In this document: piece by piece, positions 45,632 through 45,805 of the stretch
How the letters are laid out: the number at the start of each line of letters is the position of its first letter
Position numbering within the stretch: position 1 is the first letter of the stretch
Origin: Escherichia coli
Lineage (GTDB): Bacteria; Pseudomonadota; Gammaproteobacteria; Enterobacterales; Enterobacteriaceae
Strand: one strand, 5' to 3'
Assembly: GCF_009931435.1 (NCBI RefSeq)
Contig: NZ_CP043414.1
Length of the DNA: 64,000 nt
The notes under the pieces: model-generated
What the model was told of the DNA's origin: nothing
Database searches by the model: none
The model's input: the letters and a program-made list of their open reading frames with translations, nothing else
Made by a program: the position numbers and the translations under genes

Positions 45632-45805
45632 CTAGTTGTCGCTTTTACCGTGACTGCTCTTGCCACCTTTTTTACCTGCTTCAGATGCGCGCTGCGGGTC
45701 ATTTTTGAAATTACCCCCGCTGTGCTGTCCACCTTTTTTACCTGCTTCTGATGCTCTTTCGCGGTCTTCTGCAAAATTGCCGGAACCGCCTCGATGGTTT
45801 GCCAT
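45632..45805 (-). CDS. ymdF: Stress-induced KGG-repeat protein YmdF
   Basis: ORF 45632..45835; start at MANHRGGSGNFAEDRERASEAGKKGG gives 57 aa; contains two copies of the RASEAGKKGG motif. Confidence 0.85.
   Translation of the reverse strand: MANHRGGSGNFAEDRERASEAGKKGGQHSGGNFKNDPQRASEAGKKGGKSSHGKSDN

Follow-up and report, generated by a model that had tools for sequence, protein, structure and literature searches.

What does a protein of only 57 residues with an internal duplication contribute to an enteric bacterium, and is the gene that encodes it as obscure as its size suggests? The question was raised by an open reading frame at positions 45632-45805 (minus strand) of a 64,000-nucleotide stretch of Escherichia coli DNA (hereafter the window; contig NZ_CP043414.1, assembly GCF_009931435.1), which had been named ymdF and described as encoding a tiny, poorly characterized KGG-repeat stress protein in a prediction made from the letters of the DNA alone. 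We are highly confident that the locus is ymdF of E. coli, an already catalogued gene of a known family. As a finding this is nothing new, as ymdF is annotated in essentially all E. coli genomes, the family has a Pfam entry, and deletion phenotypes have been published. Taken as a whole, the evidence is best explained, in our judgment probably though by no means securely, by the known ymdF being a gene regulated by sigma-S, CsgD, and OmpR that encodes a hydrophilin-type protectant.

Identity of the gene and its product

Translation, an exact-sequence look-up, and the RefSeq annotation all define a coding sequence of 57 codons followed by a TAG stop (45632-45805, minus strand). The product, MANHRGGSGNFAEDRERASEAGKKGGQHSGGNFKNDPQRASEAGKKGGKSSHGKSDN, is identical residue for residue to YMDF_ECOLI (UniProt P56614, b4518) and occurs on at least 1000 contigs; the known gene likewise lies between rutG and wrbA, and we found no difference between the two. 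The RefSeq label at the locus ("ymdF: con-10 family general stress protein" or "general stress protein") agrees with the predicted name. The KGG-repeat assignment was borne out by a match to Pfam family PF10685 (KGG) in two stretches with 67 bits (E=1.6e-18), well above the gathering score of 20.4 bits, and homologues keep tandem units of about 22 residues with the KGG core. A scan of YmdF against NCBIfam returned no family match.

Glycine accounts for 21.1% of the residues, in line with the predicted glycine-rich composition, and the GRAVY index is -1.71. The protein was also said to be highly basic: the pI of 9.87 and the net charge of +4 (11 Lys and Arg versus 7 Asp and Glu) bear this out, but the wording is somewhat overstated, since the first repeat unit has no net charge and the surplus resides in the second. 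The gene was found in 5415 of the 5426 complete E. coli genomes (at least 80% coverage). A second locus in each genome, about 80% identical to ymdF, is yciG, and there are 2-5 KGG-type loci per E. coli genome, some of them plasmid copies. It is near certain that ymdF is a stand-alone, monocistronic gene and a near-identical paralogue of yciG.

The start codon deserves attention, as an in-frame ATG-ATG upstream opens a frame of 67 residues from 45835 and some databases carry forms of 80-89 residues called from starts further upstream. Top-down mass spectrometry of E. coli colonies has recorded intact YmdF with its methionine removed at 5748.73 Da (PMC5594050), and the monoisotopic mass that we computed for residues 2-57 is 5748.7335 Da, 0.6 ppm from the published value. 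Because the published intact mass equals the computed mass of the 57-residue form minus methionine, the start codon at 45805 is fixed; the 67-residue form would weigh 7093 Da and was rejected. A Shine-Dalgarno sequence read from the DNA (GGAGG, 45812-45816, minus strand) is placed for this ATG, 6 nt before it, and is invariant in five genera, whereas the upstream extension of the frame is not conserved in the same genera. Together with the purifying selection on the reading frame described below, this leaves a chance open reading frame or a mis-called start with a practically negligible probability. LC-MS has also identified the Salmonella protein, classed as small and dependent on sigma-S (PMC5437024). 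On the opposite strand, a 77-residue open reading frame (45660-45893, plus strand) merely mirrors the KGG repeat and was discarded, having no support as a gene.

The tandem 22-residue repeat

The internal duplication had been described by two peptides, both of which we located in YmdF, RASEAGKKGGQHS spanning residues 17-29 and RASEAGKKGGKSS residues 39-51. They form the cores of two full units, and the complete unit is longer than either, comprising 22 residues (GNFxxDxxRASEAGKKGGxxS). Unit 1 spans residues 9-30 (GNFAEDRERASEAGKKGGQHSG; 45716-45781, minus strand), as defined by the Pfam stretch, the 22-residue self-offset, and 16 enterobacterial homologues, which show little or no variation in it. 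Unit 2 follows directly at residues 31-52 (GNFKNDPQRASEAGKKGGKSSH; 45650-45715, minus strand), and the best Pfam stretch covers residues 32-52. The protein ends in a variable tail, GKSDN (45635-45649, minus strand), which differs between genera.

When YmdF is aligned to itself with a shift of 22 residues, 17 positions are identical, versus 1-6 at all other offsets between 15 and 29. At the DNA level, the two units have 44 of 66 bases in common, including an exact block of 20 nt, GAAGCAGGTAAAAAAGGTGG; the longest repeat in shuffled versions of the reading frame (n=300) had a mean length of 7.1 nt and a maximum of 11 nt. The internal repeat is thus far beyond chance. An automated repeat finder reported no direct repeat in the reading frame despite the 20-nt block, probably a masking artefact caused by the A6 run, and no further KGG unit occurs anywhere in the window. 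The peptide core is identical in both units, and its codons differ only synonymously (AGA/CGC for Arg, TCA/TCT for Ser, GGA/GGC for Gly), indicating that the duplication is old and has been maintained at the protein level.

Conservation of YmdF and the KGG family

Pairwise comparison of the first 49 codons of ymdF among five enterobacterial genera gave 10-20 synonymous versus 1-2 non-synonymous differences, and the gene is under strong purifying selection. In an alignment of 16 enterobacterial sequences, 30 of the 57 positions are invariant, with the variation concentrated in the tail after GGK, where genera carry KSSHGKSDN, KNSHGSRES, or KSSNRNS. A profile-free exhaustive search of 1.84 billion cluster representatives (50% identity clusters) retrieved 639 relatives at E<=1e-3, of which 199 form the stricter set at E<=1e-10. 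A lack of repeat conservation, named in the original prediction as what would count against it, is contradicted by these relatives and by the invariant positions.

The best 147 relatives carry one (n=15), two (n=74), three (n=48), four (n=8), or six (n=1) KGG cores, so that the two-repeat form of YmdF is the commonest. From 281 units we derived the family consensus GNF[AK][NE]D[PR][EQ][RK]A[SA]EAG[RK]KGG[QE]xSG, in which GNF, A.EAG, and KGG are nearly invariant across the alignments of relatives. The median pI of the family is 9.8, although it also includes some neutral to acidic proteins (pI 5.1-6.9).

Genomic neighbourhood, promoter region, and 3' end

As predicted, ymdF on the minus strand is divergent from wrbA (46178-46774) and yccJ (46795-47022), both on the plus strand, with a spacer of 372 bp; on its other side it lies tail-to-tail with rutG. 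The order agp / yccJ-wrbA <-> ymdF is kept in Salmonella, Klebsiella, Citrobacter, and Enterobacter, and the far flank varies, being rutG in E. coli and an EamA-family gene or rutR-putA elsewhere. Among four loci looked up in distant taxa, two lie on contigs shorter than 1 kb, and the other two have no neighbour or operon partner in common.

The alignment of the spacer in five genera revealed a conserved block resembling a promoter core, ATGCAATATGATGTCTATAC (45822-45841, minus strand), with two candidate -10 elements. With the first, TATGAT (45836-45831), the leader would measure about 19 nt. With the second, TCTATACC in E. coli (45829-45822), it would shrink to about 10 nt; this element presumably resembles a sigma-S extended -10 element with a C at -13. 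No base of the segment ATGCAaTATGATGtCTA, located just upstream of the likewise invariant GGAGGTCAGTAATG, varies among E. coli, Salmonella, Klebsiella, Citrobacter, and Enterobacter, and the presumptive -35 region is unconserved and contains an indel. A scan with the sigma-70 consensus called no site directly upstream of ymdF, including neither of the two -10 candidates. Judged from the alignment, a conserved -10 element combined with a degenerate -35 region would fit the published dependence of ymdF on sigma-S (PMC5437024, PMC7161692).

Further upstream, a second conserved block, TTCACTAAGCTTA (45889-45902, minus strand), holds a perfect 12-bp palindrome, ACTAAGCTTAGT (45900-45889), and is a possible regulator site. 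A scan for a CsgD-box pattern, AAAAGNGNNAAAWW, with at most one mismatch allowed gave no match between ymdF and wrbA; the one match close by falls inside the 3' end of ymdF, and the counts over the whole window are near chance.

Downstream of the gene, the first hairpin on the ymdF strand in a terminator scan, ACCGCCGGTAATCCCGGCGGT followed by TTTTCTGTTT (45382-45402, minus strand), is shared with the tail-to-tail rutG and likely marks the putative end of the ymdF transcript. REP/BIME elements occupy 45397-45532 within the presumed 3' untranslated region (Rfam matches ES036/CssrF and naRNA4; inverted repeats I1 and I2), a region that differs between strains. With the hairpin lying beyond this cluster, the 3' untranslated region would be about 230-250 nt long and contain the REP elements.

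Expression and phenotypes reported for ymdF and its relatives

The original prediction expected a stress-induced protein, and the literature agrees. Apart from its dependence on sigma-S, YmdF was seen on 2D gels of E. coli as a stationary-phase protein with a peak at 10 h, and it sedimented together with Dps and StpA into the insoluble pellet of membrane and nucleoid, the cell-debris fraction (PMC6904343). The mRNA is 38.9-fold higher in E. coli biofilms than in exponential planktonic cells (PMC9262955). These reports and the intact mass contradict the case of no expression, which had been named as further counter-evidence. The wrbA/ymdF region is among the CsgD targets (PMC10002515), and ymdF is among the OmpR targets common to E. 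coli and Salmonella, with OmpR-linked acid and osmotic regulation noted (PMC6262077). The gene also rises as persisters emerge, co-induced with rmf, and its overexpression shifts persister levels in a direction that depends on the antibiotic (bioRxiv 10.1101/310961).

Deletion of ymdF in E. coli leaves a flat and patchy biofilm, one cell layer thick, in which cell numbers are about 10-fold lower (PMC9262955). Such biofilms lose 2.9 logs versus 1 log upon H2O2 treatment, corresponding to about 100-fold higher sensitivity, and they also tolerate tobramycin and ciprofloxacin less well (PMC9262955). The gene and PA2146 of Pseudomonas aeruginosa complement each other, and ymdF rescues a P. aeruginosa ΔsagS mutant, including its BrlR levels (PMC9262955). 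In Salmonella, ymdF, yciG, and STM14_1829 are redundant, sigma-S-dependent paralogues induced at pH 4.5, and growth in acid is modestly impaired in ΔyciG ΔymdF as well as in the triple mutant (bioRxiv 10.64898/2026.04.09.717482). The paralogue SEN1538 aids resistance to antimicrobial peptides and heat (PMC7161692). According to Oguri 2019, as cited in the same paper, the three Salmonella paralogues are unstructured by CD and influence flagellar motility. The description of YmdF as poorly characterized is therefore out of date with regard to phenotypes, complementation, mass spectrometry, disorder by CD, and regulation by CsgD and OmpR; it still applies to the molecular mechanism.

Predicted disorder and hydrophilin character

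Only three non-alanine hydrophobic residues occur among the 57 residues of YmdF. AlphaFold2 with an alignment of 27 sequences gave a mean pLDDT of 56.4 and a pTM of 0.25 with no residue reaching 70, and it placed one short helix in each repeat (residues 15-24 and 37-46). The PDB searched with the family profile had no match at E<=1, leaving YmdF with no structural template. These analyses, among which the structure model is indirect evidence, point to an intrinsically disordered protein with local helical propensity. By the definition of Garay-Arroyo et al. (2000), as quoted in PMC3983491, hydrophilins have more than 6% glycine and a mean hydrophilicity above 1; YmdF exceeds both values, with its 21.1% glycine and a hydrophilicity (-GRAVY) of 1.71. 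Hydrophilins are further defined by their build-up during water deficit or hyperosmotic stress and by the protection of enzymes in vitro, for which the published reports concern the paralogue YciG.

Comparison with related proteins

A close paralogue is YciG, whose first 43 residues are 91% identical to those of YmdF and which has the same two KGG repeats. YciG and STM14_1829 (SEN1538) resemble YmdF in being sigma-S-dependent and disordered, with partly redundant phenotypes according to the published work. The differences lie in the tails, QQSGGNKSGKS in YciG and KSSHGKSDN in YmdF, and in the gene context, where yciG opens the yciGFE operon and ymdF stands alone, divergent from wrbA. PA2146 of P. 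aeruginosa is likewise a KGG-repeat protein of about 5 kDa that is strongly biofilm-induced and interchangeable with YmdF in both directions (PMC9262955); unlike ymdF, it lies near katE, and the SagS/BrlR link is specific to Pseudomonas.

More distant is the resemblance to GsiB of Bacillus subtilis and the plant group 1 LEA proteins (Em). These, too, are hydrophilic, glycine-rich, and disordered; their tandem units of about 20 residues end in G[RK]KGG, and their levels rise upon stress or desiccation. That GsiB and LEA1 are homologous has been published (Stacy & Aalen 1998). The YmdF unit has 22 residues with a GNF..D..RA.EAG core, whereas that of GsiB/LEA1 has 20 residues with Y..E[IM]G. YmdF gave no match at E<=1 to Pfam LEA_5 (PF00477), which has a gathering score of 40 bits, and is thus not a LEA_5 member, an observation that speaks against a LEA link. 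The YmdF profile aligned to wheat Em by hhalign over 14 columns only (E=0.054). A GsiB-like query matched both KGG and LEA_5, a bridge that is approximate because the query was not an exact database sequence. One Pseudomonas protein (P0177) carries a GsiB/LEA1-type unit, EATSASHDKEFYQEIGSKGG, ahead of two YmdF-type units, with a sub-threshold LEA_5 match (18.3 bits versus 40). At most, YmdF may by analogy work like a group 1 LEA protein. Con-10 of Neurospora crassa (conidiation-specific protein 10), tied to YmdF by the RefSeq family name and in PMC6262077, is likened to it by description; con-10 differs in being eukaryotic, longer, and developmentally regulated.

A proposed mechanism and its alternatives

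According to the literature, ymdF is transcribed from a sigma-S-dependent promoter, and CsgD and OmpR also act on the gene, so that YmdF accumulates when cells are stationary, form biofilms, or encounter acid pH. Under the mechanism that we propose, it would be an abundant, unfolded, and highly hydrated polypeptide, a hydrophilin related to the group 1 LEA proteins, in which each motif (GNF..D..RA.EAG[RK]KGG) would form a short helix on binding or when water is scarce. By attaching stoichiometrically to proteins or large cellular structures, YmdF would shield them from inactivation. The lost biofilm architecture and the lost tolerance of H2O2 and antibiotics in biofilms would then be downstream consequences, as would the mild effects on acid growth and motility, which would be redundant with YciG.

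For YmdF as such a stoichiometric protectant of macromolecules, which we hold at somewhat under an even chance, the nearest experimental analogue is YciG, which, present with LDH at a molar ratio of 1:1, reportedly protected this enzyme against drying (Reyes 2005, cited after PMC3983491). Against it stands the very fact that the enzyme-protection results come from the paralogue. Also, the repeat is conserved far more tightly than is typical of composition-driven disordered proteins acting as an "entropic shield." PA2146 has been tied to no stress beyond biofilm growth and, acting genetically downstream of SagS on BrlR abundance, looks regulatory (PMC9262955), and single deletions give weak or strain-dependent phenotypes (bioRxiv 10.64898/2026.04.09.717482, PMC7161692).

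Several of these points lend themselves to the main rival of the protectant, a specific regulatory disordered protein, which we consider unlikely. Here the KGG repeat would be a short linear motif folding on one conserved partner and tuning the switch from motility to biofilm, instead of providing bulk protection; in Salmonella this partner would belong to the PhoP/flhDC pathway, in Pseudomonas to SagS-BrlR, and in E. coli to the CsgD circuit. The very strong conservation of the motif (30 of 57 positions, with GNF, A.EAG, and KGG) favours a specific binding interface, and the predicted single helix per repeat agrees with this. E. coli ymdF restores biofilm architecture and tobramycin tolerance to P. 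aeruginosa ΔPA2146 and, in ΔsagS, restores both phenotypes along with BrlR (PMC9262955). Its place among the CsgD targets (PMC10002515) and the motility phenotypes of the Salmonella paralogues (Oguri 2019, via citing papers) point in the same direction, but these effects on motility could not be confirmed in S. Enteritidis (PMC7161692). Moreover, the numbers of repeats (1-6) and of copies (2-5 loci per E. coli genome, plasmids included) vary freely, as is more typical of dosage-type protectants, the distant loci looked up have no conserved gene neighbour, and the family includes GsiB of Bacillus and con-10 of fungi, where these pathways are missing. A more specific form of the idea, in which the KGG unit would not serve as a bulk "water-holding" sequence and the invariant GNF, R-A-x-E-A-G, and KGG recognise one ubiquitous target through folding upon binding, appears rather doubtful to us; in that equally doubtful case the target might be the nucleoid or membrane surface, or a catalase/ferritin-like partner. 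If it were true, YmdF would be an effector under CsgD/sigma-S control that licenses biofilm maturation and tolerance, which would explain both the interchangeability of a 57-residue disordered protein between E. coli and Pseudomonas and the pelleting of so soluble a protein.

Improbable, and a weaker rival, is a small, basic protein of stationary phase that attaches to nucleic acid or ribosomes, comparable to RMF, Sra, or the nucleoid proteins, and modulates translation or the state of the nucleoid. The basic pI, typical of the family, the net charge of +4, and the richness in Gly, Arg, Lys, and Phe would suit it, as would the co-induction with rmf at persister emergence (bioRxiv 10.1101/310961) and the presence with Dps and StpA in the insoluble fraction at 10 h. 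That fraction is cell debris, however, and not the crude-ribosome fraction of RMF and Sra (PMC6904343); in addition, repeat unit 1 has no net charge, some family members are neutral or acidic, and the Pfam, NCBIfam, and PDB searches matched no known nucleic-acid-binding family.

A nucleotide-binding function through a Walker A motif (P-loop) is very improbable. The Pfam description, as quoted in PMC9262955, states that a Walker A motif lies downstream of KGG, and that paper attributes a Walker motif to YciG but not to YmdF. E. coli YmdF does fit [AG]-x4-G-K-[ST] twice, in AGKKGGKS (residues 43-50) and GKSSHGKS (residues 48-55), yet none of the orthologues from Salmonella, Klebsiella, Citrobacter, and Enterobacter retains the pattern. 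Among the 147 family representatives it is seen in no more than 10, and shuffling YmdF's own composition produces it in 5.4% of cases. Being absent from the orthologues and from 137 of the 147 representatives, Walker A is probably not a real feature of the KGG family. Nor is there a strand-loop-helix context in this 57-residue protein of pLDDT 56, reportedly disordered by CD, whose only two short helices are predicted elsewhere. We rejected the P-loop reading of the C-terminus; the matches are probably spurious by-products of a composition rich in Gly, Lys, and Ser.

Implications for the KGG family

The KGG family is very widespread, extending from the gamma-proteobacteria to GsiB of Bacillus, con-10 of fungi, and, distantly, the group 1 LEA proteins of plants. 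It has been linked to the tolerance of antibiotics in biofilms, and the remaining interest lies in its molecular mechanism. With 57 residues, two repeats, and one close paralogue, YmdF is a handy minimal model for what the motif binds.

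Sequences Flanking ymdF

Two sets of sequence elements lie between the divergent ymdF and wrbA genes. Upstream of wrbA, a sequence of about 17 nt, AAATAAGTGGTTGTGAA, occurs as three direct repeats at positions 46044-46139 of the window. The repeats are conserved in part in Salmonella, Klebsiella, Citrobacter, and Enterobacter and may represent binding sites of a putative regulator of wrbA. On the ymdF side, a perfect 12-bp palindrome, ACTAAGCTTAGT (45889-45900, minus strand), lies some 85-95 nt before the ATG start codon of ymdF, embedded in the conserved block TTCACTAAGCTTA; it is a candidate transcription-factor site. 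The opposite strand of ymdF also carries a 77-residue antisense open reading frame (45660-45893, plus strand) with its own internal repeat, PPFLPASDA, occurring twice. This frame mirrors ymdF, is a by-product of the repeat, and is unsupported as a gene.

At the other end of ymdF, Rfam matches and repeats define a REP/BIME cluster at 45397-45532, between the stop codons of rutG and ymdF. The segment 45468-45510 (plus strand) matches the Rfam family ES036 (CssrF) with 38.5 bits, barely over the gathering score of 37.6, and the naRNA4 match at 45397-45464 falls under the Rfam threshold. The region 45300-46250 is covered to at least 80% in only 2883 of the 5426 E. coli genomes. From these sequence comparisons, the rutG-ymdF spacer appears to differ among strains, because among the other genomes the rows sampled show a match that begins only at around 45556.

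On the far side of wrbA and yccJ, strain N96 of E. coli has an additional pair of hypothetical genes, 519 and 327 bp long, located between yccJ and agp (5101-5958 of the N96 locus). They are absent from the corresponding stretch of the window (47023-47059) and therefore constitute a small strain-specific insertion adjoining the ymdF-wrbA-yccJ locus.

Walker A Matches in the YmdF C-terminus

Contrary to the published statement that a Walker A motif is found in YciG only, and not in YmdF (PMC9262955), the PROSITE Walker A pattern matches twice within the C-terminus of E. coli YmdF (residues 43-57; 45635-45679, minus strand). The pattern is not conserved, and it is probably meaningless in YmdF and YciG alike.

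KGG-repeat Genes in Other Genomic Contexts

Two tandem KGG genes, encoding 58 and 94 residues (3496-3672 and 4001-4285 of the compared locus), adjoin genes for a GGDEF protein and a ClpP-like protease in Pseudomonas. The 94-residue product combines one repeat of the GsiB/LEA1 type with two of the YmdF type.

KGG-repeat homologues were also found on 128 plasmids of the plasmid collection, including 69 from Pantoea and 13 from E. coli. Individual E. coli genomes contain one to five matching loci, 13 of such loci being plasmid-borne. One chromosomal copy (4001-4222 of its locus) lies downstream of a TraI/TrwC relaxase gene, at a distance of about 1.4 kb, suggesting that KGG-repeat genes are carried by mobile elements.
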